64,000 nt of DNA from a bacterium (GTDB lineage: Bacteria; UBA8248), in the NCBI GenBank assembly GCA_965261085.1, contig OZ253442.1, positions 1,920,001 through 1,984,000 of the forward strand, in the 5' to 3' direction. Under the pieces are notes generated by a model, which saw nothing but the letters and a program-made list of their open reading frames with translations, ran no database searches and was not told the DNA's origin. This document shows positions 9,152-46,004 of this stretch, in pieces. Every line of letters begins with the position of its first letter. Position 1 is the first letter of the stretch. The translations under genes and the position numbers were made by a program.

Positions 9152-9784
9152 TTAACTCTCTTCTTTATCCTTTTCGAGCCGTTCCTGCTTCACGCGGGCG
9201 ACCTCGGTCTTGACGTCGTCGATAACGTCTTTGCCCCAGAAGAGCTTTCCCTCCACCACGAACGTGGGGATTCCGAAGATACCCAGACCTTTTCCCTGGG
9301 CGCGCTGGCTGTGCAGTGCGCCGATGTAGCGTCCCTCGGCGATGACGGCTTTGATTTCCTCCCCGTCCAGGCCGACATCCTCACCGAGTTTGGCAATGAC
9401 GTCCAGATCTTCCAGGTTCTGGTCGTCCACCCAGCGGGCCTTGTAGCAGCGGTCCCGAAATTCCTTGAATTTCCCCTTGTCCCGAGCGTAATAGGTAGCC
9501 ATGTGAAGGTTGGTGGTGCGGTAGTCGCCTCCGGCGACCCGGATGGGCACGTCGTACTTATCGGCGAGAGGTTTGTGGTTCGTCTCGTAACTTTCTTTTT
9601 TCCGTTCGGGAGAGTAGCCGGCGAACTCCTGACCGGGGGGTCTTCCCTCCCAGCTGACCCACTCGACGACCACGTCGAGGTCTTCTTCAATCACAGGTAT
9701 GCCACCGACGGTGGCGACGTAGCAAAATGGTCAGGTGTAATCCGAGTATTTCACCACAACAATCGGTTCTTTCAACTCACCCAT
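9152..9784 (-). CDS. DsbA/FrnE-like thioredoxin-fold selenoprotein (UPFC)
   Basis: ATG 9784 with GGAGG; reads MGELKEPIVVVKYSDYT-TGA-PFCYVAT in frame with the 9152..9694 ORF; TGA at 9733-9731; cis-Pro motif GIPTF; hairpin 9701-9715. Confidence 0.85.
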
Positions 9785-31214: not shown

Positions 31215-32189
31215 TTAAACTCTCAGTACGGAAGCTGGGTGTTGCGCGCGTTCGAGGACGAAGTCGGCCATCAGCGGCCAGGGATCGAAGCCGATGACAT
31301 TTTGCGCATCGTCCACGAAATTGGAGAGTGCGTTGATGTCGTAATAATATATTTCCCCATCTTTATCATTGACCAAATACTCGACGCCGCCGACTTCTAT
31401 GCCGGCTTTCCGCATGATTTTCTCGACCGTATTTATTACTTGTTGCGGGGGTGTGATTTTCTCAACCAAAGCATTCCTACCGTTCACGCCACACGCAATT
31501 TCTTCGTTTCGGCGGCAATAACTGCCCGGGCAGAGATTAAAGGAGTTCGGGTCCACCAATGCCAGTTGAATCGCATAAAGAAACTCACCATTTAGAATTT
31601 CGACTCGGATAATTTGCTCTCCACGCGGCGGAATGTATTCCTGAACGAGAGCCACATTGTCGATGCCAAAATCGATGCTCGCTTCATCCGCCGCCTTTTG
31701 GAGTTCTTGGGGCGTATCATATTTTTGTATCCCGGCGCCGCTTCCGCCAATGTTCGCCTTCGTGATGATAGGGAAGCTGAATCCCTCGGCCGCCGAAGGG
31801 GCCTGCGAGGGATGGTTTATCACCCGTGACTTCGGGTGATTGACGCCCAGGTTCTTGAGTAGACGGGTTTGCCGCACTTTTGAGAATTCATGGAGATAGG
31901 CCTCATAGCCGTTGATCACGTTGGCGCCAATCGCTTGGAGATGCGCGCAATATTCGAGCGTGTAGGGAATCGCATGTGTATGCCCGCGCGCCCATGCAGA
32001 TGGGCTCATCCGGTTTACAATCAACGAATAAGGCGATTCTGTTTCCGTCGGGTCGAAGCGGTGGTTGTGGGCTTCTATTTTTTCATATTCCACACCTCGC
32101 CTGTCGAGTTCATCGAAAAGCTTATTGAACCAATCGGGGTGTTCATAATAAACAGCGATGGGATGGGCAGAACCGTTTAGGTCACTCAC
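31215..32189 (-). CDS. ATP-grasp ligase (RimK/glutathione synthase-like)
   Basis: NRMSPSA, KANIGGSGAGI, VQEYIP, GGVEY, YDINALSNF. Confidence 0.85.
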   Translation of the reverse strand: MSDLNGSAHPIAVYYEHPDWFNKLFDELDRRGVEYEKIEAHNHRFDPTETESPYSLIVNRMSPSAWARGHTHAIPYTLEYCAHLQAIGANVINGYEAYLHEFSKVRQTRLLKNLGVNHPKSRVINHPSQAPSAAEGFSFPIITKANIGGSGAGIQKYDTPQELQKAADEASIDFGIDNVALVQEYIPPRGEQIIRVEILNGEFLYAIQLALVDPNSFNLCPGSYCRRNEEIACGVNGRNALVEKITPPQQVINTVEKIMRKAGIEVGGVEYLVNDKDGEIYYYDINALSNFVDDAQNVIGFDPWPLMADFVLERAQHPASVLRV

Positions 32190-32638
32190 CGGAGCACATT
32201 CTCCTCAAATTTTAGCGTATCGAGTACTTGTTGGATTCGTTCATCGACTATCTCGATCATCTTGGGATGAAATCCGAGGTGCGGACCTAAAATGACGTCG
32301 ATATCAGGGTATTTCCTCCGGCCTTCTTTAATGAAGACGGGCAAATCCACCTTCACGTGATTGCCCCTGAAAAGAAAGTAAGGGATGACGATGATTCTCT
32401 CTGCCCCATTCTCTACACACAAGTCGATTCCTTCGGGGATGGAAGGGTGGCTGATCTCCAAAAATGCGGCCTCTAGTATGCGATGCGGCCAGGCTTTCCG
32501 AAAATGATCCACGACGAGGAAAAGCGCATCGTTGGCGTTTTGGGCGCGGCTGCCGTGACCGACGAGCAATACCGCCGTTTTCACTTGGTCCTCGGATGTC
32601 TCGTCCAAAAATTCTAATTGCTTTTCTAGGCTAGGCAT
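32186..32638 (-). CDS. sirohydrochlorin chelatase (CbiX/SirB family)
   Basis: LLVGHGSR, AFLE..PSI, PYFLFRGNHVKVDLP; exact start uncertain. Confidence 0.88.
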   Translation of the reverse strand: MPSLEKQLEFLDETSEDQVKTAVLLVGHGSRAQNANDALFLVVDHFRKAWPHRILEAAFLEISHPSIPEGIDLCVENGAERIIVIPYFLFRGNHVKVDLPVFIKEGRRKYPDIDVILGPHLGFHPKMIEIVDERIQQVLDTLKFEENVLR

Positions 32639-34431
32639 TCGCCTTCTCCTCTTTCCAATACGTATTGTTTGTCCTGACTCCAATCGATGAACAAATCAGA
32701 ATCAGGCTCATCGTTGAATTGACCAACAAGGTGAAACTCTTGCAACAGGTCTTCGAAAGACGCACTGCCCTGACGATCCAAAAACTCGTTGAAACGCTCG
32801 CCTTCGCTCCTGTATTCCTGGTAGTGAGACAACATCTTCTTCAGTGCATCGGGAACACGCTTCGCAGGAATTCGAACCTGTATACGTTTGCCGATGCGGA
32901 TTTCTCCATCAGTGCTATCGTATTGGCCACCGAGGAAAATTTCATAAGCAGGCAGCATCGCGCCGTTCGCTCTAAGCGTTCCTCCATGAAAGCCGATGTT
33001 GGCGATATGGTGCTGGCCGCACGAATTCGGGCAACCGCTCATCTTGATGTGCATCTCCCGCGTGAGCGGGTCCTGATCGACTTCTTGGAGTGTTTCGCGC
33101 ATGGCGTTCGCCAAGCCCATTGAGGAGGTAATGCCGAGCTTGCATGAATCCGTTCCCGGGCAGGAAACCACATCAGATATCTCGCGGGCGCCTTTTTCGG
33201 CGAGTCCGATGCGATGAAGCTCTTTCCATAGGGGATAAAGCTCTCCTTCGCGCACCCATCTGAGGACAAGGTTTTGCTCGAAACTCGTTCTTGCGCGGCC
33301 TCTCGCAAAACGCCGGGTGAGGTCGGCTAAGGCGAAGAACTGACCTGTAAGAATATTTCCCAATGGTAGCTTGATCTCGACGGCGAAATAGCCTTCTTGC
33401 CTCTGCGCGGTGACGTTTGTATTTCTCCAGGCGTAATAATCCGCCGCATCGCCATTCGGGTTTGCTGCCACGCAGTTCAAGGTGTTCAAGACGGGTGGAG
33501 CGTCGGCTTCTTCATCATCTTTCCAAAGATAGGGCTCGGGATTGATGGGCTCTTTCGCCCAATCCTTCTTGAGCTCCTCCTCGACACGCTCGCGCAGTCC
33601 GTCTATACCGATCCAACTCACCAAAAACTTAATGCGCGCCTTGAAGCGGGATTTGCGGAGTTCAGCAGCCTGGTCAAAAACCCGGATAAGGGCTTCGCTC
33701 ACCCTCAGGAAATCGGACACCGGAACGAATTCGTACAGCACTTCAGCGGTACGCGCGAAAGTGGCGAGGCCGCCGCCAACGAGCATCTTGAAGCCATGCA
33801 CGGGGATTCCTTCCACTTCTTTAATGAGGGGAATGAACCCAATGTCATGAATTCCGCCGACTACGCAGTCCGAAGAACAACTGGAGAACGCCACTTTGAA
33901 TTTGCGCGGTAGGTCCTGTGTGAAATCCTTACGAACGAAGTAACGGGCGAAGGCACCTGCATATGGTGTGGTATCGAAAACCTGATCCTTACAAACGCCC
34001 GCATAGGGACAACCGGTGACGTTTCTCACGCTATTTCCACATGCTTCACGCGTGGTTAGCCCCACTTCGCCCAGAAGTCTCAAAACATCAGCGGCCTCGT
34101 CGAGAGGGACGAAATGAAACTGCACGTTTTCCCGTGTCGTGACGTGGCCTTTTCCTAATGGCGCGAAATCACGGGATACGCGCCCCAGGGCTTCGAGTTG
34201 CGAAGCACTCAGGCCGCCGAAAGGTATTTTCACGCGCACCATCTGAACATCCGCCTGACGCTGCCCATATACGCCGCGTCTTAGCCGATAGGGAAGAAAC
34301 TCGCTGTTATCGATTTCACCGTTTCGGAACCTGGTGGCTTGCGTTTCAAAATCATCTAATTCTTCGGGAATCACCGGAATGACGCCCAATGTTTCCCGGG
34401 ATAGTGGTTTTCGTGATTCTTCGTGCATCAC
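32626..34431 (-). CDS. siroheme nitrite/sulfite reductase (ferredoxin-dependent type)
   Basis: GVYGQRQ, TTRENVQ, CGNSVRNV, LPRKFK, SCPGTDSC and SGCPNSCGQH ligands. Confidence 0.92.
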   Translation of the reverse strand: MMHEESRKPLSRETLGVIPVIPEELDDFETQATRFRNGEIDNSEFLPYRLRRGVYGQRQADVQMVRVKIPFGGLSASQLEALGRVSRDFAPLGKGHVTTRENVQFHFVPLDEAADVLRLLGEVGLTTREACGNSVRNVTGCPYAGVCKDQVFDTTPYAGAFARYFVRKDFTQDLPRKFKVAFSSCSSDCVVGGIHDIGFIPLIKEVEGIPVHGFKMLVGGGLATFARTAEVLYEFVPVSDFLRVSEALIRVFDQAAELRKSRFKARIKFLVSWIGIDGLRERVEEELKKDWAKEPINPEPYLWKDDEEADAPPVLNTLNCVAANPNGDAADYYAWRNTNVTAQRQEGYFAVEIKLPLGNILTGQFFALADLTRRFARGRARTSFEQNLVLRWVREGELYPLWKELHRIGLAEKGAREISDVVSCPGTDSCKLGITSSMGLANAMRETLQEVDQDPLTREMHIKMSGCPNSCGQHHIANIGFHGGTLRANGAMLPAYEIFLGGQYDSTDGEIRIGKRIQVRIPAKRVPDALKKMLSHYQEYRSEGERFNEFLDRQGSASFEDLLQEFHLVGQFNDEPDSDLFIDWSQDKQYVLERGEGECLA

Positions 34432-34498
34432 ATGCTCCTCACGTGAACAGCTAAGTAAATATCGGATGATGAATGGGAGTCAGGCCGAAGCCCGGCTT

Positions 34499-35308
34499 TT
34501 ACGAAATGGCTTTGTTTAAGAATGCTTCCGGGAGACAGCGCCAGGAGATTTCTTGACTTTCATCGGCCTCGAACCAAACCAGGTCTTCAAGGCCGGCGAC
34601 TGGGCCTACGAGAAAAACAGCAGGTGGAGATATTTCTTCGCGTTGCGCGAGACTAGATGCTTCTCCCAAAAGACAGCGGTAGGCTGACTGCCTGTTGGTG
34701 GTTCCATTTTCAATAATGGCGGTGGGCGTGTCTTTCGACATTCCGTTTTCGATCAGAGCGGCTGATATGCGTCCGATGGAGCGTGCGCCCATGAGGAAAA
34801 CGAGTGTCCCCCTATCCTTCGCCAGATGCGCATAATCCACCTGTGTTTTCGGTTTGCCGGGATCTTCATGGGCGGTCACGACGGTGAACGATGAGGCGAT
34901 GTTTCGGTGTGTGACGGGTATTCCCGCATAGGTGGGCACAGCCAAGGCGGAACTGATTCCTGGTATGATTTCAAAATGAACACCGGCTTCTGCCAGGGCT
35001 TGCGCCTCCTCGCCGCCACGCCCGAACACGAAAGGGTCCCCACCTTTCAGGCGCACCACCTGAAAACCACGATGAGCGAAATGGATGAGAGATTTGTTGA
35101 TGTCATCTTGATTCATGATATGACGGCCGCTGGATTTTCCAGCATTGATGAGTTCGCAGCTTTCCGGGCAAAGTTGTAGAATCTCAGGGTTCACGAGGCG
35201 GTCATAAATCACCACGTCCGCATTTGATAAGGCTTTCGCCGCCTTGAGTGTAAGCAAGTCCGGGTCCCCAGGACCTGCTCCCACAATATGCACCTTTCCT
35301 TGATACAT
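34499..35308 (-). CDS. cobA: uroporphyrinogen-III C-methyltransferase
   Basis: VGAGPGDPDLLT, VRLKGGDPFVFGRGGEE, GIPVTHR. Confidence 0.95.
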   Translation of the reverse strand: MYQGKVHIVGAGPGDPDLLTLKAAKALSNADVVIYDRLVNPEILQLCPESCELINAGKSSGRHIMNQDDINKSLIHFAHRGFQVVRLKGGDPFVFGRGGEEAQALAEAGVHFEIIPGISSALAVPTYAGIPVTHRNIASSFTVVTAHEDPGKPKTQVDYAHLAKDRGTLVFLMGARSIGRISAALIENGMSKDTPTAIIENGTTNRQSAYRCLLGEASSLAQREEISPPAVFLVGPVAGLEDLVWFEADESQEISWRCLPEAFLNKAIS

Positions 35309-35347
35309 GAGAGATTCCTATCTAAAGTCTAATTTTTTCTTTTTATT

Positions 35348-35366
35348 GTTAAGTAGATTACTTAAC
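35348..35366. promoter_or_regulatory. palindromic operator candidate
   Basis: Perfect 8-3-8 inverted repeat GTTAAGTA-gat-TACTTAAC in the AT-rich divergent promoter region. Confidence 0.45.
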
Positions 35367-35483
35367 TTTTTCGGAAAATATTCCGCTTTTGTACTTTTGT
35401 CAACCCAATCAAGCGTTTATTCTTAGGTTGTTTTGTCTGGGATGATGTTGTAGATGTCCATCGCTATAGAGAAGGTGCGAATA

Positions 35484-36083
35484 ATGAGTGAAAAACCCAA
35501 GTGTTTTGAAGTTGCTTTGCGTCTCATCGATGAAGCGAATTCGCAGGATCCGAATACCGAGAAATTCGAGGGCGAAGATTACCCCAAAGAGCTTTTGTAT
35601 TCGATGAGAATGACAAAATGGCTCGAAACCGTGGAGCCGCACGCTTCCGAAGCCCTGCGTCTGGCGGTTCGCAGTCAACATATACGCCGGTGGGACATTC
35701 CTCGATCGGATTATCCTCCCGGTCGGAAAGGATATCACCAATGGCGGACCCGTCTTTACGACTATCATGGGGAGAAAGCGGCCGAAATTCTCAAAAAGGT
35801 GGATTACGATGAGGAAACAATAGCCCGTGTGCGAATGCTGTTGAAAAAGCAGGGTTTGAAGACCAACACGGAAACCCAGACACTCGAGGATGTCGCCTGT
35901 TTGGTGTTTTTGGAGAGTTATTTATGGGATTTCTCCCGGCTGTATGATGAGGAGAAAATCATCGACATCTTGCGGAAAACGTGGCGGAAAATGTCCGCGC
36001 GCGGACAGGAGGCCGCCAGGGAGCTTTCCTTGAATGCAGGTGCGGGAGCGTTGTTGCACAAGGCGCTCGCGCCTGAAAATTAG
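35484..36083 (+). CDS. DUF4202 domain protein
   Basis: IDEANSQDP, PKELLY, QHIRRW..PR..YP.GR.GY..WR, QTLEDVACLVFL. Confidence 0.85.
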   Translation: MSEKPKCFEVALRLIDEANSQDPNTEKFEGEDYPKELLYSMRMTKWLETVEPHASEALRLAVRSQHIRRWDIPRSDYPPGRKGYHQWRTRLYDYHGEKAAEILKKVDYDEETIARVRMLLKKQGLKTNTETQTLEDVACLVFLESYLWDFSRLYDEEKIIDILRKTWRKMSARGQEAARELSLNAGAGALLHKALAPEN

Positions 36084-36191
36084 TGGGAAACGGCTATTTT
36101 CAAAAGCTTTAACCCCGCTTTCTCATCCGCGTTCTTGTGGTGTATGATTCGGGCGCAATGTTTCTTTATGGCTCATCTTAAGGAGAAAATC

Positions 36192-36851
36192 ATGAACGTC
36201 ACCATGTGGAACTGCTACGTCTGACCTTACGCATATAGGGCCATGGAATGGCTCGTTCGCCTTCAGGAGAAAAGAAGCGATCTGAAAGTGGATTACAAGG
36301 CCTTCGTGCTGGAGCAGGCGAATTTCGGCCCGGCGCGGGGCGAGGACTGGAAAGCCTGGGAAGACAAGACTTTCCCGAGCAGGGATCTCCCCCCGCATCA
36401 GGCGGCCAAGTGCGCGGCGCTGCAGGGCGAGACGCAGTTCGACAAGTACCACGTGGCGCTCCACCGGGCGAGGCACCGCGACGGCAAGGATATCACCAGC
36501 GAGCTGGTTCTGCGCGATATCGCCGTGGAGGTGGGCCTCGACGTCGATCGCTGGGAGGAGGACATGAAGAGCGGCGCCACCATCCCCTTCATCGCGCAAG
36601 AGCATGAGGACGCGGCGGAGCAGGGCATTTTCGGCGTTCCCACGCTCGATTTCGGCGAGGGCAAGCCCGTTTTCGTGAAACTAGAGGAAGGCGATTGGGA
36701 AAACGAGGGCGATGAGCAGGGTCTGCTCGACGCCGTAAAGGCCACCTCGGCCGAGCGGCCCTATTTGTTGGAGCTCAAGACGCCCGAATCCGCCAAGCGC
36801 AGCTCTTCCTCTTCGAAGAAGTATGAGAAATATGGGGTGAAGGCGCGATAA
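36192..36851 (+). CDS. DsbA-like thioredoxin-fold selenoprotein (CYVUPYA)
   Basis: AAGGAG then ATG 36192: MNVTMWNCYV-TGA-PYAYRAMEW in frame with the 36243 ORF; TGA 36222-36224; FGVPTL cis-Pro motif; hairpin 36238-36254. Confidence 0.85.
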
Positions 36852-36885: not shown

Positions 36886-37239
36886 ATGAGCGAAGCAGAG
36901 GATAAGGCCCATCCGGTAGATCTCACGGTGGATAAGACCGCGCGCGAGTTTCGCGTCGAGTGGGCGGGCGGGGAGAAGAGCGCCTACGGCTTCGATTACC
37001 TCGCTGCCCTTTGTCCGTGCGCGAATTGCAGGGAGGAGCGCAAGGCGCGCGAGAAAAACCCCCTCACCGTCCTCTCGGGGCCGAGCGGGCCGACAGAACT
37101 TGAAAACGTGGAGATGGTGGGGCGCTACGCCCTCAATTTCATCTGGCGGGGCGGTTGCGGCGCGGGAATCTATTCGTTTGACTATCTCTACGAGATCGCT
37201 CCTGAGCGCGCGAAGAGCGCAGGCGAAGGGGAGGCGTAA
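36886..37239 (+). CDS. DUF971 (gamma-butyrobetaine hydroxylase N-terminal-like) protein
   Basis: LAALCPCANC, VGRYAL..W..G..GIYSFDYL. Confidence 0.88.
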   Translation: MSEAEDKAHPVDLTVDKTAREFRVEWAGGEKSAYGFDYLAALCPCANCREERKAREKNPLTVLSGPSGPTELENVEMVGRYALNFIWRGGCGAGIYSFDYLYEIAPERAKSAGEGEA

Positions 37240-37441
37240 ATCGTGCCGACCCGTACACCGGAAGCCAAGGATGAGAAGTATCAAACTCAACCGGAGCAAA
37301 AAGCCTGCCCCACGTGAGTGGGCGGCTGGTTCCGCGCCGTGGCGTGGGTTTTCATGTGGATGAAGAGGAAGATACTGGGGTAGCCAGCCGATAAATCACA
37401 TTATGAAAATCGCGTAGAAGCGATGAAACGTGCGCAATATC

Positions 37442-37474
37442 AAACCCCTCGCCGGAGCGGGGGGTTTTCTTTTA
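37442..37474. terminator. rho-independent terminator (likely bidirectional)
   Basis: AAACCCCTCGC-cgga-GCGGGGGGTTTTCTTTT. Confidence 0.75.
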
Positions 37475-37630
37475 TCGGTTGATGAGCAGATTCGCGCCCG
37501 AGGCGATTACCAGGACGCCCACGATTCTCTTGAGCGTGAGGGCCGAGACGTTCTTGAGCAGATACGCCCCGTAAACGCCGCCCACGATGGCGCCCAAAAC
37601 CAGAAGACCTGCCCCTATCCAGTCAAAATC
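37472..37630 (-). pseudogene. TauE/SafE sulfite exporter C-terminal fragment
   Basis: DFDWIGAGLLVLGAIVGGVYGAYLLKNVSALTLKRIVGVLVIASGANLLINR*; in-frame stop just upstream and no start codon. Confidence 0.6.
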
Positions 37631-38039
37631 GTTCTCATTTTCAAGAATACTTGTTTTTTATCAACCAGTTATGACGATTATCGAATGTTTCACTGCAACT
37701 ACGGCCATCTCCGGATCCGTCTCGTTTTCCGGCGATTTATTTGTCGGAAATTTATCGAAAAACGTCGTGAATTTATCGATATTTATCGTATTGTTTCAGC
37801 CTTTTTATCGATTTTTCTCCGCCGATTCCTGCGTAATCAATCGCGACTGAGGAAGAAGCGATTGACGCGAGTGAGGAGCGAGCGTTTGTCGACCGACCGA
37901 AGTCAATCCCGCCCGATGCCGAATCGCCGTTTCCATTTTCTCCCCTCCTCCAAGTGCCGGGAACACTTATCTGCTCGCGCGAAATTCTCGCCCATCCCGA
38001 CGAAAATCCGATGACGGCAAATGCGGGAAGATGCGCGCC

Positions 38040-38300
38040 ATCACTCCCCCCTTGAGGGTGAATTCCGACTGAAGAAGGAGGGATTCTCGCGATTGAAGAA
38101 TGAGCGATTGTTCCGACAGATGATGGAGGGACTGCCAAGCGAGGAGGGAGGAAGGAAGGTTTGCGAAGGAATGGTGAGGATGTGGCTTCGTGTGGGGTCA
38201 GACATTTATGTCTGCCACCCATGTGTCCGCCCGGTTTTGCTTCGTCATTCCGGCGCATGCCGGAATCTAGAACCGAGGAGGGAGGGATTGTGCGCGTCTC
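38040..38300. repeat. cluster of REP-like palindromes
   Basis: TCACTCCCCCCTTGAGGG half-element, TTCCGAC..GGAGGGA(T/C)T repeats, GTGGGGTCAGACATTTATGTCTGCCAC hairpin, CGTCATTCCGGCGCATGCCGGAATCT hairpin. Confidence 0.7.
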
Positions 38301-38497
38301 ATCACTCCCCCCTTGAGGGGGAGTCGGCAAGATGAGGGCATATGCCCGAAGTCGCGCCGGTGGGGGGAGATTTAGTTTGAGAGTTATTTATATCGCTCCT
38401 GATCAATCCTCCCTTATAAGTCGTGATTACCCCCCACCGCATCAGCCTTCGCCCAAAGCGCTCGGCTTCCTCGACTCCCCCTCAAGGGGGGAGTGAT
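38301..38497. repeat. MITE/REP-dimer-like element with perfect 26-bp terminal inverted repeats
   Basis: ATCACTCCCCCCTTGAGGGGGAGTCG (38301-38326) is the exact reverse complement of 38472-38497; inner CGGTGGGGGG/CCCCCCACCG pair around an AT-rich spacer. Confidence 0.85.
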
Positions 38498-38637
38498 TCC
38501 CCACTGGATGAACCCCACCAAGGAGGAATCGCGCCGGAAAATGTGCGATATTTACGTCCCATGAAAGCCACGAGGAATAGCTTGCTCCGCCATACGTCCC
38601 CAAGCGCCTCCCGGCGCGGCATCGCCTGAGGCTGGAC

Positions 38638-41430
38638 GTGCGCCTATCCTGGAACGAGATGCGCGTGCGCGCGGCGGGGTTCGCCCGCGCATGGCGAGGC
38701 GCGGCGTATGAAAAGGGCGAGACGCAGAGTTTTTATAACGAGTTCTTCTATATCTTCGGCGTCGAGCGCCGCTCCGTCGCGCGCTATGAGGAGCACGTAA
38801 GGCGGCTGGATAATACCCACGGGTACATCGACTTGTTCTGGCCACGCGTTTTGATCGTCGAGCAAAAAAGCGCGGGCCGCGATCTGACGAAAGCCTACGG
38901 ACAGGCGGGGGAATACTTCGACGCCCTGCCCGAAAGAGAAAAACCCGGCCACATCCTGGTGAGCGATTTCCAGACGTTTGAGCTTTACGATCTGGACGAG
39001 CGCGTGCGCACCGTTTTCTCGCTCGGCGGCCTGCCCGCTAATATCGAGAAATTCGGCTTCATCCTCGGGCTTCGCCGCCGCGCCTTTCGCGATCAGGACC
39101 CCGCCAACATCAAGGCCGCCGAACTCGCGGGCAACCTGCACGACGCCTTGGCGGAGGCGGGCTATACGGGGCATGATCTCGAACGTTTTCTGGTGCGCGT
39201 GGTCTTCTGCCTGTTCGCGGACGATACAGGCATCTTCGAGCCGCGCGACATCTTTTTCAACTTCATCGAAGAACGCACGAACGAGGACGGCTCGGACACC
39301 GGGTCGAAGTTGGCCGAACTCTTCCAGGTGCTGGATACGCCCGATACGGAGCGTCAGAACACGCTGGATGAGGACATGGCGCGCTTCCCTTACGTGAACG
39401 GCGATTTGTTCAAGGACTCCCTCCGCATTCCCTCCTTCGACTCCGCCATGCGCAACGCCCTGCTCGAAACCTGCCGCTTCGACTGGTCGAACATCTCGCC
39501 CGCCATCTTCGGCGCGCTCTTTCAATCGGTGATGAATCCAAAGGAGCGCCGCGCGCAGGGGGCGCACTACACGACCGAGAAGAACATCCTGAAGGTCATC
39601 GAGCCGCTTTTCATGGACGATCTGCGCGAGGAGTTCACGCGGCTGAAGGCGAGAAAGGACAGCCGCCGCTCGGCTGAACTCAGCCGCTTTCAGGAGAAGC
39701 TGGGCCGTATGAAATTCTTCGACCCGGCGTGCGGGTGCGGGAACTTCCTCATCATCGCCTACCGCGAACTGCGCGAACTGGAGATGGAAGTGATCCGCGA
39801 ACTACGCGCCGCCGAGACGCAGCGCGAACTCGACGTGGCCGAACTCTCACACATCACCGTGGATCAGTTCTACGGAATCGAACTCGGCGAATTTCCGGCG
39901 CGCATCGCCGAGACGGCGCTCTGGATGATGGATCACATCATGAACAATCGCTTAAGCCTCGAGTTCGGCCAGACCTACACGCGCATTCCCATCACGACCT
40001 CCCCGCACGTCCTGTGCGCCGACGCGCTGGAGACCGACTGGGCGGCGCTTCTCCCGCCTGCGGATTGTTCTTATGTTTTCGGCAATCCGCCGTTCGTGGG
40101 AGCGAAGTTCCAGACGGGTGAGCAGCGCGCGCAGGTGCGCCGCATCGCCGATCTCGGCAAGAGCGGCGGGACGCTCGACTACGTGACCGCGTGGTTCATC
40201 CGGGCAGGGGAGTACCTGCAAAAGAGCGCGACGCGGATCGGCTTCGTCGCCACCAACTCGGTAACGCAGGGTGAGCAAGCGGCGCAGCTTTGGCCTCTCC
40301 TCTTCGATCAGTGCAAGCTAGAGATATCCTTCGCCCACCGCACCTTCGCCTGGGGGTCGGACGCGCGCGGGGTGGCGCACGTGCACGTCGTCATCATCGG
40401 GCTGGACGTCCGGGAGGCGGCGCGGGCGGAAAAGCGCCTGTTCAGCTATCCCGACATAAACGGCGAGTCGCAGGAGAGCCGCCACGCCGCCCTCTCTCCC
40501 TATCTGTTCGAGGCGGGGGGGCTTGCCGATCCGCATATAGTGGTGCGGGAGGAGAGTAGGCCGATCAATGGAATGAGGAGGCTCATAACAGGAACTCAGC
40601 CTCTCGAAGACGGAAGGCTTACTTTTTCACTTGCAGAAAAAGCGGTCTTTATCGAACGCGAACCAGGTTCTGCCCCATTTTTTCGACCCTTTCCAGGTGC
40701 GCGAGAGTTCATTCGAGGCCAAGAAAGATGGATACTTCATACAGCAGATATTCCGCCTCAAATTCTCCGTCAGTTGCCAATGATTCGTGCGAGGTTGCAA
40801 GCAGTTCGTGATTTTCGTAGCAAGAGTAAACGCCAAACCACAAAACGTCTTGCGGATTACCCAACTTCTTATGGAGTGACTGTCGTACCGGAAACGTCGT
40901 TTCTCATTATTCCGCAAACAAGCTCAGAGAGACGGGACTATGTGCCAATCGGGTGGCTCGAACCACCAGTGATCCCGAGCGAAAAACTTCGCCTACTTCT
41001 CGATGCGACTCTAGTCGATTTTGCCCTTTTAACCTCCGCTATGCACATGGCATGGATGAGAGCGGTAACGGGTCGGATGAAGAGCGATTACATGTATTCC
41101 GTCGGCGTGGTCTACAACACCTTCCCGACGCCGCCGGGGGACGCCGTCCTCTCGAAGCTGGAACCCTTGGCCCAGACCGTTCTGGACGCCCGCGCGGCGC
41201 ACCCTGAATCCACGCTGGCCGACCTCTACGATCCGGACCTCATGCCGCCCGACCTGCGCCGCGCCCATCAGACCTTGGACCGCGCCGTGGATCGCCTCTA
41301 CCGCCGGGGCGGATTCGCCTCCGAGCGTGAGCGCGTGGAGCATCTCTTCGCCCTGTACGAGAAAATGCGCGCGCCGCTGGAGGCGCGGGTGAGGAAAAAA
41401 CCGAGACGGAGGAGGGGAAATGTACGATGA
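38638..41430 (+). CDS. MmeI-like type IIL restriction-modification enzyme (N6-adenine MTase plus endonuclease)
   Basis: N-terminal IDLFWP..VEQKS nuclease motif, GAHYT, FDPACGCGNF (motif I), GNPPF (motif IV), SSERRDYVPIG, LADLYDPDLMP..AH..LDRAVDRLY. Confidence 0.92.
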   Translation: MRLSWNEMRVRAAGFARAWRGAAYEKGETQSFYNEFFYIFGVERRSVARYEEHVRRLDNTHGYIDLFWPRVLIVEQKSAGRDLTKAYGQAGEYFDALPEREKPGHILVSDFQTFELYDLDERVRTVFSLGGLPANIEKFGFILGLRRRAFRDQDPANIKAAELAGNLHDALAEAGYTGHDLERFLVRVVFCLFADDTGIFEPRDIFFNFIEERTNEDGSDTGSKLAELFQVLDTPDTERQNTLDEDMARFPYVNGDLFKDSLRIPSFDSAMRNALLETCRFDWSNISPAIFGALFQSVMNPKERRAQGAHYTTEKNILKVIEPLFMDDLREEFTRLKARKDSRRSAELSRFQEKLGRMKFFDPACGCGNFLIIAYRELRELEMEVIRELRAAETQRELDVAELSHITVDQFYGIELGEFPARIAETALWMMDHIMNNRLSLEFGQTYTRIPITTSPHVLCADALETDWAALLPPADCSYVFGNPPFVGAKFQTGEQRAQVRRIADLGKSGGTLDYVTAWFIRAGEYLQKSATRIGFVATNSVTQGEQAAQLWPLLFDQCKLEISFAHRTFAWGSDARGVAHVHVVIIGLDVREAARAEKRLFSYPDINGESQESRHAALSPYLFEAGGLADPHIVVREESRPINGMRRLITGTQPLEDGRLTFSLAEKAVFIEREPGSAPFFRPFPGAREFIRGQERWILHTADIPPQILRQLPMIRARLQAVRDFRSKSKRQTTKRLADYPTSYGVTVVPETSFLIIPQTSSERRDYVPIGWLEPPVIPSEKLRLLLDATLVDFALLTSAMHMAWMRAVTGRMKSDYMYSVGVVYNTFPTPPGDAVLSKLEPLAQTVLDARAAHPESTLADLYDPDLMPPDLRRAHQTLDRAVDRLYRRGGFASERERVEHLFALYEKMRAPLEARVRKKPRRRRGNVR

Positions 41431-41478
41431 AGCTGGCGAGTTTAGTGCGCCATTATTGAAAATTGTAGACCTATCTGG

Positions 41479-42387
41479 ATGGATTTCAGTATCCTGAGGA
41501 CGACACAAAGGAGCATTATCGTGGCGGGAAACCGAACCACCGACTTCAAAGACCCATTCTGGAGCACGAAATGGTTGGATACTGCCTTGAAGAAAGAAAA
41601 GGAAAAATATGAAAAATGCCCGGTAATGCCGGACTGGGTTCCCGACTACGACACCGCGCAGGGGTGGGGCTACGTAGTCATTGGCTATTTCCTTGTCGAA
41701 GAATCATTCAAGGCGCTTTTACACGTTCGCGGGAAGAAGGTACCCAAAGAACACTCACTATCTACTTTATTCAACTTGTTCGATCAAAACGACAAAACGA
41801 TCCTCCGCGAATATTATGCCGACTACCAGGCTACTATCGGCGGTATCATAGGGATGTTTCGGTTCAAATCCATCGACGATTTTCTTGTAAATCTCGACGG
41901 AGATAAAAACGAACGCGGAGACCACATCGGCTCCTTCGACTGGCGGTACTTCCTCATTGAGGAAAAGCGAAGCCAGGAGATGCCATTCGTCAGTGTGGAT
42001 TATCTGCACGAAATCGTATTCGGATGTGTCCGAATCATCGAATCCGCGAACAATGGTCAGTTCGATCCGTCTCGATACACTCGTACTTGGCGGATGCGAC
42101 GGGAGCGCATGAGAAAATACGACGACTGGTTGATTGTCAGAATGAACTCTGACGGATGGGATGATCTCGGTGATAGGTTGGAAATCCTGTGGGGACCGGA
42201 CTATCGTGGGCGCTATGACCTATGTCTTTTTAGAGGCATGGGGCAAGGGAATCATTTTTTTTCGAAGATTCCGGACGACTTCGAGTTGCCGGTTGTTGAC
42301 AAGAGGTTGGAGATCGAAACCTTCGATGCTGAACAAGGATATCGGAGTATCGGAGCGACCTTCCCTTCGCGTCCGTCTACAAACTAA
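41479..42387 (+). CDS. hypothetical protein, HEPN-like
   Basis: FLVEESFKALL..PKEHSLSTLF..FDWRYFLIE resembles the E-xx-LKA / H-x-L-xx-LF / WRY HEPN pattern; lower GC than the R-M gene. Confidence 0.5.
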   Translation: MDFSILRTTQRSIIVAGNRTTDFKDPFWSTKWLDTALKKEKEKYEKCPVMPDWVPDYDTAQGWGYVVIGYFLVEESFKALLHVRGKKVPKEHSLSTLFNLFDQNDKTILREYYADYQATIGGIIGMFRFKSIDDFLVNLDGDKNERGDHIGSFDWRYFLIEEKRSQEMPFVSVDYLHEIVFGCVRIIESANNGQFDPSRYTRTWRMRRERMRKYDDWLIVRMNSDGWDDLGDRLEILWGPDYRGRYDLCLFRGMGQGNHFFSKIPDDFELPVVDKRLEIETFDAEQGYRSIGATFPSRPSTN

Positions 42388-42421
42388 AAGTTCTTTCCTC
42401 CCACAATCCTCGCGTTTCGGA

Positions 42422-42546
42422 ATCACTCCCCCCTTGAGGGTCATTTCCGACCAAAGCGGGAGGGATTGTCGCAGAAGCCGAGCTTTCGGCGAAGGCTGAC
42501 GCGGGGGGGGGGGTATGGATTCTAAAATAAAAGCTCCCCCCACCGG
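42422..42546. repeat. left part of palindromic element interrupted by IS
   Basis: ATCACTCCCCCCTTGAGGG..GAAGCCGAGC..GGCGAAGGCTGACGCGG matches the 38301-38497 element; it ends at the IS end. Confidence 0.75.
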
Positions 42547-42729
42547 GGTTGTTGAAAAACCCCTGACTCTATGATTGGGTGTATGGATATATTCGCCCGA
42601 GATGGGGAGGTCCCGAGATGTTGGGATGCAAGAACAGCGCGCAGCTGGATTTGTTCATCACCGGTTCGCTGGAGAAGCTGGTGCCTGCGGATCATATATT
42701 GGCCCGCGTGAACCGCGTTCACGACCTGC
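42545..42729 (+). mobile_element. IS1182-like left-end fragment
   Basis: Near-identical to 44776-44960, including the GGGGTTGTTGAAAAACCC end and the first transposase codons. Confidence 0.8.
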
Positions 42730-42826
42730 TAGAACGCCTCTCCGCCTCTAAGCGTGCGGAAAAACCGGGGGAAACACTACACAAATCAAGCTGTCAGGAT
42801 ACGCCATATTGCAGGGTAACGCCGCT

Positions 42827-43948
42827 TTATATCCCGTCCATGGGCGGTTCTTCGTAGAACGTGAAATCATCGGTGCTCAGTTCGCTGACTTCGGTGTTCT
42901 CCAGGCGGATCGTGCCTCCTCCTTCGCTGGTGTTAATGAGGGCTGTCGTGCTGTCCGCCGTGATGGTCAGGTCGCCGAAGCCGGTGATGTTCTGCATGGC
43001 GCTCAGGTCGATGGTGTCCGTCTCGTCTTCGAAATCCTTGATGGTGTCGTCGCCGTGTCCCGCCTGAAAGACGAAGGTGTCCGCGCCGCTTCCTCCAAAA
43101 ATCGTATCACCGCCAGCACCACCATCGATGGTGTCGTCGCCTTCCTCCCCCACGAGCCAGTCATTGCCGGCGCCGCCGTATAGCTCGTCGTCTCCCTCGC
43201 CCCCATAGAGCAAGTCGTTGCCGCCCTCGCCATACATCTGTTTGTCGTTTTCCGCGCTCAAAAAGAAATTGGCGTTGCCATCACCCACCCAGGGGTTGGG
43301 CGCGTGGGTTATCCTGGTTGCATCAGTTGTGATGTCGGGTGGCGGGGCGCTGCCATCGGGAAGATTGAACATGCTCTCGGTGAGGTCGGCCTCTTCCACA
43401 CCGAGGAGGGTGATCGTTCCTCCCAGCGCGCTGTGCGTGATGGTCACGCCGATGATTTCGGCCACGTCGAGGCCTTCGGTTTGCCCTTCCAGATTCGTGA
43501 TGGTCAAATCCGAAAACGCTATCTCCACCGGGAGCCGACTCAGATCGATCACGTCGCTCGCGAGGTCGAAATCCTCGACCGTGTCGTTCCCCGTGTTTGT
43601 AGAGAACAGGAACGTGTCCGAGCCGGCGCCGCCGGTCAGGGAATCGTTTCCCGATCCTCCTAAGAGATGGTCGTCGCCTTCACCGCCATAAATCTCATCG
43701 TCGCCGGAGTCCCCTAATAACGTATCGTTGCCTTCACCGCCATAAATCGTATCGTCGCCGGAGTCGCCCCTTATGACGTCATGGAAACCCCCGCCATATA
43801 GCGTGTCGTTCCCGGAACCGCCGCGTATGATGTCCTTGCTGTCGCCACCGTGGACTGTATCGTCCCCGGCGTCGGTGGAAACAATATTGACTCCATCTCC
43901 CAGATCTAAATTGTCATTTTCCGAGGTGCCTTGTTTATGCCAGGACAT
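42827..43948 (-). CDS. RTX (hemolysin-type) calcium-binding repeat protein
   Basis: Many GGxGxD nonapeptides, two DTF.F..GxDT(I/V).DF..D.IDL modules; AAGGAG RBS. Confidence 0.88.
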   Translation of the reverse strand: MSWHKQGTSENDNLDLGDGVNIVSTDAGDDTVHGGDSKDIIRGGSGNDTLYGGGFHDVIRGDSGDDTIYGGEGNDTLLGDSGDDEIYGGEGDDHLLGGSGNDSLTGGAGSDTFLFSTNTGNDTVEDFDLASDVIDLSRLPVEIAFSDLTITNLEGQTEGLDVAEIIGVTITHSALGGTITLLGVEEADLTESMFNLPDGSAPPPDITTDATRITHAPNPWVGDGNANFFLSAENDKQMYGEGGNDLLYGGEGDDELYGGAGNDWLVGEEGDDTIDGGAGGDTIFGGSGADTFVFQAGHGDDTIKDFEDETDTIDLSAMQNITGFGDLTITADSTTALINTSEGGGTIRLENTEVSELSTDDFTFYEEPPMDGI

Positions 43949-44558
43949 GCCGTTCTCCTTTTATACTTATGAGACCCGTTGAATCTGGTTGGGTGTTTTT
44001 CCGGGCTGACCGGAGAGCGGCGGCTTTATCGCCTGCGCCGCCTTCGATCCAGTCGTTGTTCGCGCCACCGTAGATAAAGTCCCTGCCTTCACCGCCATCG
44101 ATCGCGTCATCGCCCTTACCGCCGTAGATAATGTCTGATCCTTCGCCGCCATCGAGCGTGTCGTCGCCTTCGGTGCCTTTGAACAAGTTGACGTCGAACG
44201 GCAGCTTCCCGAATATAAAATCATCCACGTCAAGGTTCGTGATATCAACGTTCTGGAGGCGGATCTCCCCTCCGCCGTACCCGCCCAAGTCGATGAGGAC
44301 GTCGTCCCCGTCGGCGGTGATGGTCAGATCATCGAAGCCGGTTATGCCCAGTATCGATGAGAAATCGATCTTGTCTTCCCCACTGGTGAAGTCGGTGATC
44401 GTGTCGTTCCCGTCCCGGGCGTCGTATATGAAGGTATCGTGCCCGGCTCCGCCCGTGAGCGTATCGTCGCCCTCCTCGCCTATGAGCGTATCGTGGTCCT
44501 CACTGCCCACGATCGTGTCGTCGCCCTGGGTCCCGAAGATTGTTTGGTCATCCACCAT
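43935..44558 (-). CDS. RTX calcium-binding repeat protein, probably 3'-truncated
   Basis: GGxGxD repeats end abruptly at about 44030, followed by a non-RTX tail running into the next gene's RBS. Confidence 0.75.
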   Translation of the reverse strand: MVDDQTIFGTQGDDTIVGSEDHDTLIGEEGDDTLTGGAGHDTFIYDARDGNDTITDFTSGEDKIDFSSILGITGFDDLTITADGDDVLIDLGGYGGGEIRLQNVDITNLDVDDFIFGKLPFDVNLFKGTEGDDTLDGGEGSDIIYGGKGDDAIDGGEGRDFIYGGANNDWIEGGAGDKAAALRSARKNTQPDSTGLISIKGERHVLA

Positions 44559-44775
44559 GTCGTCTCTCTTTAATTAGTTTTTAGTGCGGGCGTCTCTGGT
44601 GTCCGGGTGCATGCCGTACCGAGGTTCGCGAGGCCTCCCGTGCATGCGTCGCCGCCATCGCCGCGTCCGTACAAAATCGGTCACCAATCTACTAAACCTT
44701 GTGTGAAGTAGGTGTGAATTATCACTATAAAATGGTGTGGATTAAGTGAATTTCAACGCCAAACCGGCCCTGGGA

Positions 44776-45541
44776 GGGGTTTTTGAAAAACCCCTGACTC
44801 TATGATTTGGTATATGGATATTTTCGCCCGAGATGGGGAGGTCCCGAGATGTTGGGACGCAAGAACCGCGCCCAGATGGATTTGTTCATCACCGGTTCGC
44901 TGGAGAAGCTGGTGCCTGCGGATCACATCCTGGCCCGTGTGAACCGCGTACTCGACCTGGGTTGGCTGCGCGAGGAGGTGGCGGATTGCTATTGCGCGGA
45001 CAACGGTCGTCCGGGGGTCGACCCGGAGGTGGCGGTTCGCCTGATGCCGGCGGGTCTTCTGCTGAGGATCGTGCACGACCGGCGTCTGCTGCGCGAGGCG
45101 CAGGTGCACATCGCGATCCGGTGGTTCATCGGTTACGGGCTGGAGGATCGGCTGCCGGACCATTCGAGCCTGACGCGGATCCGGCAGCGGTGGGGGGAGG
45201 AGCGGTTCCGGGAGATATTCCGCCGCACGGTCCGGGCGTGCCTGGATGCGAAGGTGGCCAAGGCCGAAGTGGTTCACGTGGACGCCTCATTGATCCGCGC
45301 GGACGTGAGTTGGGAGAGTCTGGTGGAGCGTCACGTGGACGAGGTGATAGCGGAGAACCCCTTGGAGGAGAAGTCCGGGAAGAAGGGTGGAGGAGGCCGC
45401 CGGGGCGGGGGTTCGGGGCGGGTGAGCCGGACGGACCCGGACGCGCGCCTTGCGACCTCGGGCGGGCGCGGGGGGTTCCTGTCCGCCGCCGCGTGACCCT
45501 CCATACCGCCCGCTCCCGAAACCGGGTTATACAACAACCCC
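44776..45541 (+). mobile_element. internally deleted IS1182-like element
   Basis: Left end GGGGTTTTTGAAAAACCC; right end GGGTTATACAACAACCCC, whose reverse complement matches the 42545 end at 16/18. Confidence 0.8.
44849..45496 (+). pseudogene. truncated IS1182-family transposase
   Basis: LVPADHIL, GRPGVDPE, RWFIG..LPDHSSLTRIRQR, VDASLIRA, SRTDPDA, then an early stop; C-terminal DDE part missing. Confidence 0.8.
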
Positions 45542-45545
45542 CATG

Positions 45546-45654
45546 GGCGATGGCTGACGCGGTGGGGGGATGATTCTAAAATAAATTGCCCCCCACCGGT
45601 TCGCTTGCGGGCTTACGCCCTTACCTCACCGACTCCCCCTCAAGGGGGGAGTGA
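45546..45654. repeat. right part of palindromic element
   Basis: GGCTGACGCGGTGGGGGG..GATTCTAAAATAAA..CCCCCCACCGG..CGACTCCCCCTCAAGGGGGGAGTGA. Confidence 0.8.
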
Positions 45655-45794
45655 AAAAATCTCGTTGTCCGACTGCCGCATTATGAGCAATGATGATCCA
45701 ACTTTCTCCGCCGAGATGACGTGAATTGACGCGAGATTCAAAAGGGCTAACATAACAACACCTTTGCCTCTTAGCGGACACATGATGGGGATAA

Positions 45795-46004
45795 GTGATG
45801 GCGCGGAACACGATTAACATTTTCGCTGAATGGGTGAATGTCGAGGTGGCGAGTGATTCGGAGGCGCGGGTATGGGTAGCCGAAAGCGAAGACGCGCCCG
45901 GATTGGTCGCCGAAGCGTCCACGCCCGAGGGACTCGAAGAGAAACTAAAAACTCTCATTCCCGAACTGTTGGAGTTGAACGCCCAACATCTGGATGACGC
46001 TTAA
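45795..46004 (+). CDS. DUF1902 (HicB-like) small protein
   Basis: DSEARVWVAESEDAPGLVAEA.T.E.L..K....IPELLELN. Confidence 0.8.
   Translation: MMARNTINIFAEWVNVEVASDSEARVWVAESEDAPGLVAEASTPEGLEEKLKTLIPELLELNAQHLDDA

Follow-up and report, generated by a model that had tools for sequence, protein, structure and literature searches.

Described relatives

The solved structure closest to the protein described here is that of DR2335 from Deinococcus radiodurans (PDB 7DK9, 7DKA), a protein with one conserved Cys for which the passage on DR_2335 in a 2022 review reports no function (PMC8945050). Its active site reads D-F-L-C-P-Y-A, that is, Asp stands three residues ahead of the nucleophilic Cys (position -3) and the resolving Cys is missing three residues behind it (position +3). 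The nearest relative of known mechanism is Rv2466c (Mrx2), which carries D-P-L-C-P-W-C with the canonical +3 Cys. According to the account in PMC11841060 it is a mycothiol-dependent reductase, its nucleophile is the first Cys (Cys19), the second Cys does not drive the thiol-dependent reaction but competes with it, and mycothiol is confined to actinomycetes.

Selenocysteine (Sec, U) forms of the branch lacking a resolving Cys are already published (PMC2398784, PMC13188914). The GOS “DsbA 3 (UxxV)” proteins (PMC2398784) are marine DsbA-fold selenoproteins with Sec as nucleophile and no resolving Cys; the motifs in the supplement, DFRUPFV and DYTUPWV, have Asp at -3. A 2026 inventory of 119 selenoprotein families splits subfamilies by Sec motif within a domain, and its Table 1 gives the DsbA-like domain only as UxxC and DxxUP (PMC13188914). 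Form 1 (UxxC, FrnE-like) possesses PF01323, a Sec nucleophile and, past the UGA, a short hairpin whose loop opens with G; its site is D-x-x-U-P-F-C, with canonical Asp and resolving Cys. Form 2 (DxxUP, representative MDP6049977.1) likewise has the Sec nucleophile and Asp at -3. In a different setting, SELENOM carries C-x-x-U between the end of strand beta1 and the start of helix alpha1 of a small, simple thioredoxin-like fold (PMC10668967).

The gene at 36192–36851 of the window (the whole 64-kb stretch of DNA that was analysed) resembles these selenoproteins in having a predicted Sec nucleophile and differs from the DsbA-type ones in having Cys rather than Asp at -3. The sequence comparisons point to a real selenoprotein gene, and its Cys(-3) form may represent an active-site design that has not been listed. 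Because Cys8 replaces Asp(-3) we file it as a sister variant and not as form 2, a comparison made by the Table 1 motif DxxUP alone. The Cys(-3) DsbA form is absent from the list of 119 families in PMC13188914 and, since that inventory separates subfamilies by Sec motif, a CxxUP-x-A form would be the third of the domain. Full-text literature searches and the supplements of PMC2398784, PMC12013277 and PMC13326102 yielded no CYVU/CxxUP DsbA form. As BSepDB covers these genomes, the variant may already stand there under “DsbA-like” without comment.

The gene and its product

The following features belong to the gene and its upstream region.

36120–36148, plus strand: promoter-like site TTCTCA-17-TATGAT, between the DUF4202 gene and the selenoprotein gene (function presumed)
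36180–36185, plus strand: Shine-Dalgarno sequence AAGGAG, 6 nt 5' of the ATG at 36192
36192–36851, plus strand: DsbA-fold selenoprotein, predicted to be cytoplasmic, DR_2335/Rv2466c branch, Cys(-3) clade (PF01323, 64.6 bits against a cut-off of 25.6)
36213–36215, plus strand: Cys8 (TGC), first residue past strand beta1, in place of the family's Asp(-3)
36222–36224, plus strand: Sec11 (in-frame TGA), directly ahead of helix alpha1 at the nucleophile position, aligned with the Cys of the DR2335 C-P-Y-A
36231–36233, plus strand: Ala14 (GCA), at the site of the resolving Cys in CxxC enzymes, a family-wide trait
36378–36392, plus strand: S63-R-D65-x-P67 motif, with Asp65 and Pro67 specific to the Cys(-3) clade
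36633–36644, plus strand: G148-V-P150-T loop, invariant in 53/53 genes

With the UGA read as Sec, the open reading frame specifies 219 amino acids and closes with a TAA ending at 36851; the predicted N-terminus is MNVTMWNCYVUPYAYRAMEWL. Re-reading the DNA returned AAGGAG and ATG, C8, the in-frame TGA and A14 just as first described. The database annotation begins the protein at 36243 (codon 18), giving 202 amino acids. In most related loci a purine-rich ribosome binding site can be seen by eye ahead of a start ATG. The promoter-like site, a weak signal, has 9/12 matches, five such sites having been found against 1.1 in shuffled sequence; many of 23 related sequences show, by eye, a comparable -10 hexamer ahead of the gene.

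Within the DsbA fold, the product belongs to the DR_2335/Rv2466c branch. Profile searches placed DR2335 (E 3e-42) ahead of the next family, Rv2466c (E 5e-15). When modelled with Cys for Sec (pLDDT 93.4) the protein folds as a strand (residues 2–7), a loop (8–11) and a helix (12–27) around the active site; the model matched DR2335 (Foldseek E 3e-12 and TM 0.79; by structural Z score 23.8, rmsd 2.5 over 196 residues) and Rv2466c (Z 18.1, rmsd 2.7 over 181 residues). The fold matches listed comprise oxidoreductases and enzymes that depend on glutathione. The original prediction of a DsbA-like selenoprotein with Sec at the nucleophilic position is supported, PF01323 and the fold match speaking for the fold and the DR2335 alignment for the position. 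With DR2335 (25% identity) it shares the P-Y-A without resolving Cys and the motifs F-x-L-x-Q-x-N and F-G-x-P-T. With Rv2466c (about 20% identity) it shares a C-terminal E-L-K motif; the C-P-W-C dithiol site is absent, U-P-Y-A standing in its place. The G148-V-P150-T loop occupies what we take to be the cis-Pro loop position of the thioredoxin fold.

The Rv2466c-like model PF22234 gave 16 bits against a cut-off of 27; Cys-containing homologues of the protein gave 34.1 (P0191) and 24.8 bits. No NCBIfam selenoprotein model scored above its cut-off with the window protein (best NF041057, 27.2 against 190 bits), and 12 clade members had weak matches to two models only (best E 8e-8). No signal peptide was detected, predicted strand beta1 beginning at residue 2, and we therefore place the protein in the cytoplasm and regard it as a reductase, not as an oxidase of the periplasm. 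With beta1 at residue 2 and Ala at +3 it lacks both marks of a classical periplasmic DsbA, the signal peptide and C-x-x-C at the start of alpha1.

The window holds a second DsbA-like selenoprotein gene (9152–9784, minus strand) of the canonical UxxC form, with D-Y-T-U-P-F-C and a 6-bp hairpin with a GUC loop 15 nt after its UGA. The two proteins are indeed unlike, as had been supposed, being 26% identical over 153 aligned residues. The GOS “DsbA 3” sequences resemble, by eye, the stored relatives P0073 and P0077, which match the window protein at E 1e-18 and 5e-18 and fall in its sister branch.

Related genes were gathered from genome contigs with peptide patterns of residues 65–74 and 161–170, so the N-terminus played no part in their choice. 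The 52 loci obtained (38–98% identical to the window protein) include Nitrospinota/Nitrospinaceae, Tectomicrobia, Deltaproteobacteria, Thermodesulfobacteriota, Planctomycetia and Proteobacteria. Together with the window they give 53 genes, a number which overstates the independent evidence since about twenty loci are close relatives (at least 86%). Codon 11 is TGA in all 53; Cys8 (TGC in 44, TGT in 9), Pro12 and Ala14 are each found in 53/53 as well, and the distant loci L039–L052 (38–55% identity) agree on these four positions without exception. The alignment of homologues proposed originally as a check on the C/U position and the upstream Cys has thus been made, and both TGA and Cys8 proved constant.

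The active site

The site had been called rearranged in two respects, and these fared differently. Among 63 stored proteins with a readable motif, position -3 is Asp in 52, Cys in 9 (the window protein and eight others), Asn in 1 and Glu in 1, so that Cys does replace a near-invariant Asp. Ala in place of the resolving Cys is the branch norm: a +3 Cys occurs in only 8/63, all with Asp at -3 and none among the nine Cys(-3) proteins, and 46 of the 54 stored relatives lacking Cys(-3) are without it too. As DR2335 reads D-F-L-C-P-Y-A and Sec forms have been published, we rejected the Ala as a novelty. The distinctive trait, on the sequences compared, is the replacement of Asp(-3) by Cys throughout one clade.

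Cys8 is the only invariant Cys of this clade (53/53). Cys74, found in 47/53 genes, was rejected as a general distal resolving Cys, being absent from six genes and from all six full-length Cys forms described below. Loci L039–L041 and L050 have an extra Cys at residue 5, i.e. -6 (C-Y-V-C-Y-V-U). In chosen sets of 25 clade members and 30 Asp(-3) relatives, position -3 is Cys in 25/25 and Asp in 30/30. Asp65 is present in all 25 members and is not among the four commonest residues in the 30 relatives (Gly in 17), and Pro67, Gly167, Trp169 and Glu170 are likewise clade-specific. Loss of Asp(-3) coincides with the gain of invariant Asp65 (S-R-D-x-P, where many relatives have S-R-G), so the acid may have moved in compensation. 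Asn44, Trp56, His95, Phe147-Gly148-Pro150-Thr151 and Lys196 are common to both sets.

A profile search for homologues gave 198 matches, of which the best 120 were examined and 90 were new. At least six full-length proteins (P0189–P0194) have Cys for Sec in the motif S-C-Y-V-C-P-Y-A; all retain Cys8, and the two cysteines of C-Y-V-C are the only ones they possess. The fragments P0079 and P0134 carry the same motif, so Cys8 is kept in 8/8 Cys forms. From truncated neighbours in the same sources we infer that P0189–P0194 have true Cys codons. Three of them are 80–84% identical to the UGA gene L049, and such natural Cys forms should be expressible without Sec machinery. Among these best 120 matches, 84 of the 90 new database proteins are without the active-site motif, i.e. 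the Cys(-3) clade is mis-annotated in the databases.

In a tree of 44 rows, from which the active-site segment and two long-branch rows were left out, the six full-length Cys forms are divided between two starred groups, next to UGA or truncated forms. A single origin of the six was rejected (AU p=1e-4, LG+G4); at least two exchanges between Sec and Cys would therefore have taken place, with Cys8 retained throughout. The Cys(-3) clade itself (28 rows) had support of 97/75 and was not starred; in a larger quick tree its SH-aLRT was 92.

The downstream gene

Two features follow the selenoprotein gene.

36886–37239, plus strand: DUF971/GBBH-like_N (PF06155) gene, with C-P-C-A-N-C and a fourth Cys (65.2 bits, cut-off 22.8)
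37331–37348, plus strand: terminator-like element downstream of the DUF971 gene, a G+C stem with a T run behind it (six found against 3.0 in shuffles, a weak signal)

The DUF971 gene begins 34 nt after the selenoprotein stop and is probably the second gene of a two-gene operon. It lies 18–103 nt downstream on the same strand in 40/52 loci, namely all of L001–L038 plus L046 and L049 (31–35% identity). The remaining 12 do not have it; among them, L047 stops at the selenoprotein gene. The position directly upstream of a Cys-rich DUF971 gene, as first described, is therefore true of the window and not universal, and we regard the DUF971 protein as a candidate partner, not an obligatory one. In HCF101, an Fe-S scaffold, DUF971 is the C-terminal domain; it has a CxCxxC motif (PMC7980591). 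No fusion with DUF971 was seen among the four longer matches of 8000 scored candidates, which is weak evidence.

Proposed chemistry

We suggest that the protein, made as a selenoprotein, works in the cytoplasm as a thiol-disulfide oxidoreductase belonging to the DR_2335/Rv2466c branch. The in-frame UGA would be recoded as Sec through a SECIS hairpin 13 nt downstream, a step strongly supported by comparison of the related genes. Sec11, standing as a selenolate where helix alpha1 begins, would then attack a substrate disulfide or oxidised thiol. There being no +3 Cys, Cys8 might resolve the adduct to give a Cys8–Sec11 selenenylsulfide, which a low-molecular-weight thiol or the thioredoxin system would reduce again. 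This would shift the redox pair upstream by one register and place it in the beta1-alpha1 loop, which also holds the CxxU of SELENOM. The probably co-transcribed DUF971 protein (CxCxxC) is the leading candidate for substrate or partner in Nitrospinota/UBA8248 and some Tectomicrobia genomes.

That Sec11 is the nucleophile and Cys8 its selenenylsulfide partner, shifted by one register, is the reading towards which sequence and model incline us, if by no great weight. In its favour, Cys8 is the sole invariant Cys and replaces the Asp of 52/54 other motif-bearing relatives, at least six full-length Cys forms keep it, none of the nine Cys(-3) proteins has a +3 Cys, and Rv2466c, the closest characterised relative, is a thiol-dependent reductase which uses its first Cys as nucleophile (PMC11841060). 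Against it, Asp65, Pro67, Gly167, Trp169 and Glu170 are equally clade-specific, and the invariance of Cys8 shows importance, not bond formation. Should the two residues pair, the redox pair of a thioredoxin-type site will have shifted by one register within one fold. The model places C-x-x-U between beta1 and alpha1 as in SELENOM, in a DsbA-type fold with a helical insert. We treat this likeness as an analogy and not as membership; the fold matches listed for the model are DsbA-branch proteins, with no SelW- or SelM-like proteins among them.

The original prediction offered a shifted selenenylsulfide or monoselenol chemistry; these are still the two live choices, the Se–S bond itself being putative. 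Under the second, Sec11 alone reacts, a low-molecular-weight thiol (glutathione, CoA or other) resolves the mixed adduct, and Cys8 merely caps the loop or hydrogen-bonds, as Asp(-3) presumably does, with no bond in the cycle. We consider this possible and would not expect it, a weight given to it because the Asp(-3) sister branch works without a second Cys, which is therefore not needed by the fold, and because invariance is no proof of a bond. It accords with the 46/54 relatives outside the Cys(-3) set that are without a +3 Cys, with the single conserved Cys noted for DR_2335 (PMC8945050) and with the competing role described for the second Cys of Rv2466c (PMC11841060). The residues named above as common to both sets, Asn44 and Lys196 among them, suggest a shared site too. 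A purely structural position would, however, be expected to tolerate Ser, Asn or Asp, and Cys is found there in 53/53 Sec genes and 8/8 Cys forms.

As to the thiol, two Asp(-3) members, P0060 (415 aa) and P0115 (423 aa), which are 45% identical over their full length, are fused behind dephospho-CoA kinase (CoaE). This is a weak hint at CoA as the thiol of the branch, or else at joined neighbours, since a Met directly precedes the DsbA part in each; and no CoaE match was obtained in any of the 52 loci or in the window.

It is improbable that the protein instead handles metal, Cys8 and Sec11 (joined, it may be, by His95 or His138, both invariant) binding a soft metal or an Fe-S unit for exchange with the CxCxxC site of DUF971. 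The frequent DUF971 neighbour (40/52 loci) would fit, as would the place of this domain in HCF101, the suggestion in PMC7980591 that CxCxxC may bind metals, the sulfite/nitrite reductase and siroheme genes nearby, and the aconitase-family pair of some loci. Yet His95 also occurs in Asp(-3) relatives that have no Cys8, the reductase cluster occurs in a single lineage and is encoded on the opposite strand, 12/52 loci have no DUF971 gene, and the fold neighbours are oxidoreductases and glutathione-dependent enzymes.

Returning to the Cys8–Sec11 selenenylsulfide, one might go on to speculate, at rather long range, that a lineage without the resolving Cys rebuilt a two-centre site (Asp to Cys, with Asp65 compensating) as a dedicated reductase for the CxCxxC metal or Fe-S site of stand-alone DUF971 proteins. 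If so, it would be the first named DUF971 partner in the literature searched, and a natural example of a SELENOM-like CxxU arising from a UxxC/UxxA site.

Probable selenocysteine insertion

One further feature bears on the reading of the UGA.

36238–36254, plus strand: putative bacterial SECIS hairpin GGGCCAT-GGA-ATGGCTC, with a 7-bp stem and a 3-nt loop whose first G is invariant

The hairpin starts 13 nt after the UGA, where the original prediction had put it, and its loop starts 20 nt after the UGA. The bSECIS consensus as set out in PMC13188914 has a loop of 3–9 nt, a stem of 4–16 bp, G in the first two loop positions, 16–37 nt from the UGA and an MFE of at most -7.5. With a loop of 3, a stem of 7, a spacing of 20 and an invariant first loop G the hairpin agrees with it; its MFE is -7.6 when folded alone, borderline against -7.5, and -10.1 in a 33-nt folding window. 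In context its single-sequence stability did not exceed that of shuffles (z -0.35 to -1.20 in four downstream folding windows). We therefore rejected such stability as SECIS evidence and drew on conservation and covariation.

RNAalifold predicted the SECIS stem, and nothing else, from the alignment. The stem positions pair in 99.1% of 343 cells, compared with 37.6–47.5% when the partner is slid. A compensatory change is seen in 11/49 distinct rows, which have U-A against the commonest C-G; this concerns one pair, the only one of the seven changed on both sides, and the shuffle control of the covariation ignores relatedness. Codon choice points the same way. The Arg16 codon ends in a purine in 53/53 genes, as do 402/699 Arg codons elsewhere; at codon 17 the third base is C in 53/53, against 565/1095 for other Ala codons; and L031–L034 have GAG at Glu19 though 70/80 of their other Glu codons are GAA. 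Codon choice at Arg16, codon 17 and Glu19 is, by these counts, constrained as stem pairing demands. The stem is retained even though codon 18 thereby alternates between Met and Thr, and the ATG (36243) taken as start by the databases lies buried in it.

Codon 18 is ATG in 31, ACG in 21 and GCG in 1 of the 53 genes, and the 17 codons ahead of it are conserved with synonymous changes. A start at 36243 by proteomics, or an unconserved run of 17 codons, was what the original prediction had named as telling against it; the run is conserved, and we rejected that start.

Evidence from the host is indirect and consists of the second UGA gene in the window and of the isolate that is the source of L027, which Table 2 of PMC13326102 enters in BSepDB with 54 selenoproteins. 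No tRNA-Sec was found in the 64-kb window or in the 52 loci; an Rfam scan of the window gave one tRNA only (tRNA-Val), and the scan for SelA, SelB and SelD among the related loci covered 113 chosen neighbour proteins.

On these comparisons the in-frame UGA is very probably read as selenocysteine. That it is instead a stop, the real protein being the annotated one of 202 amino acids, can hardly be credited: although 39/39 matches of the first search were without the N-terminus and none of selA, selB, selC and selD was seen within the window, position 36243 is not ATG in 22/53 genes, the upstream codons vary synonymously, the short form would by the model be without strand beta1 and the active site, a covarying SECIS and Cys homologues exist, and the L027 source genome is itself credited with selenoproteins.

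Genomic neighbourhood

Upstream, at 32186–36083 of the window, lies a cluster conserved in close relatives; it comprises genes for a sulfite/nitrite reductase, a tetrapyrrole methylase and a CbiX-type chelatase (minus strand) and for DUF4202 (plus strand). The sulfite/nitrite reductase and siroheme genes, on the strand opposite to the selenoprotein gene, are limited to L001–L038. No shared neighbourhood was seen among the distant loci. The genes downstream in some of these (L041:11571–14372, L050:11974–14757, L048:10799–11272) encode, among others, two kinds of enzyme that thiol reductases serve, a class II ribonucleotide reductase and a peroxiredoxin of the AhpC/TSA type. An aconitase-family gene pair directly follows DUF971 in L031–L034 (L031:11057–12817) and is found a few genes further on in several others. 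Past DUF971 the window (37300–46000) varies between close relatives; by eye its open reading frames include one of 930 amino acids, acidic Gly/Asp-repeat frames and transposase-like pieces.
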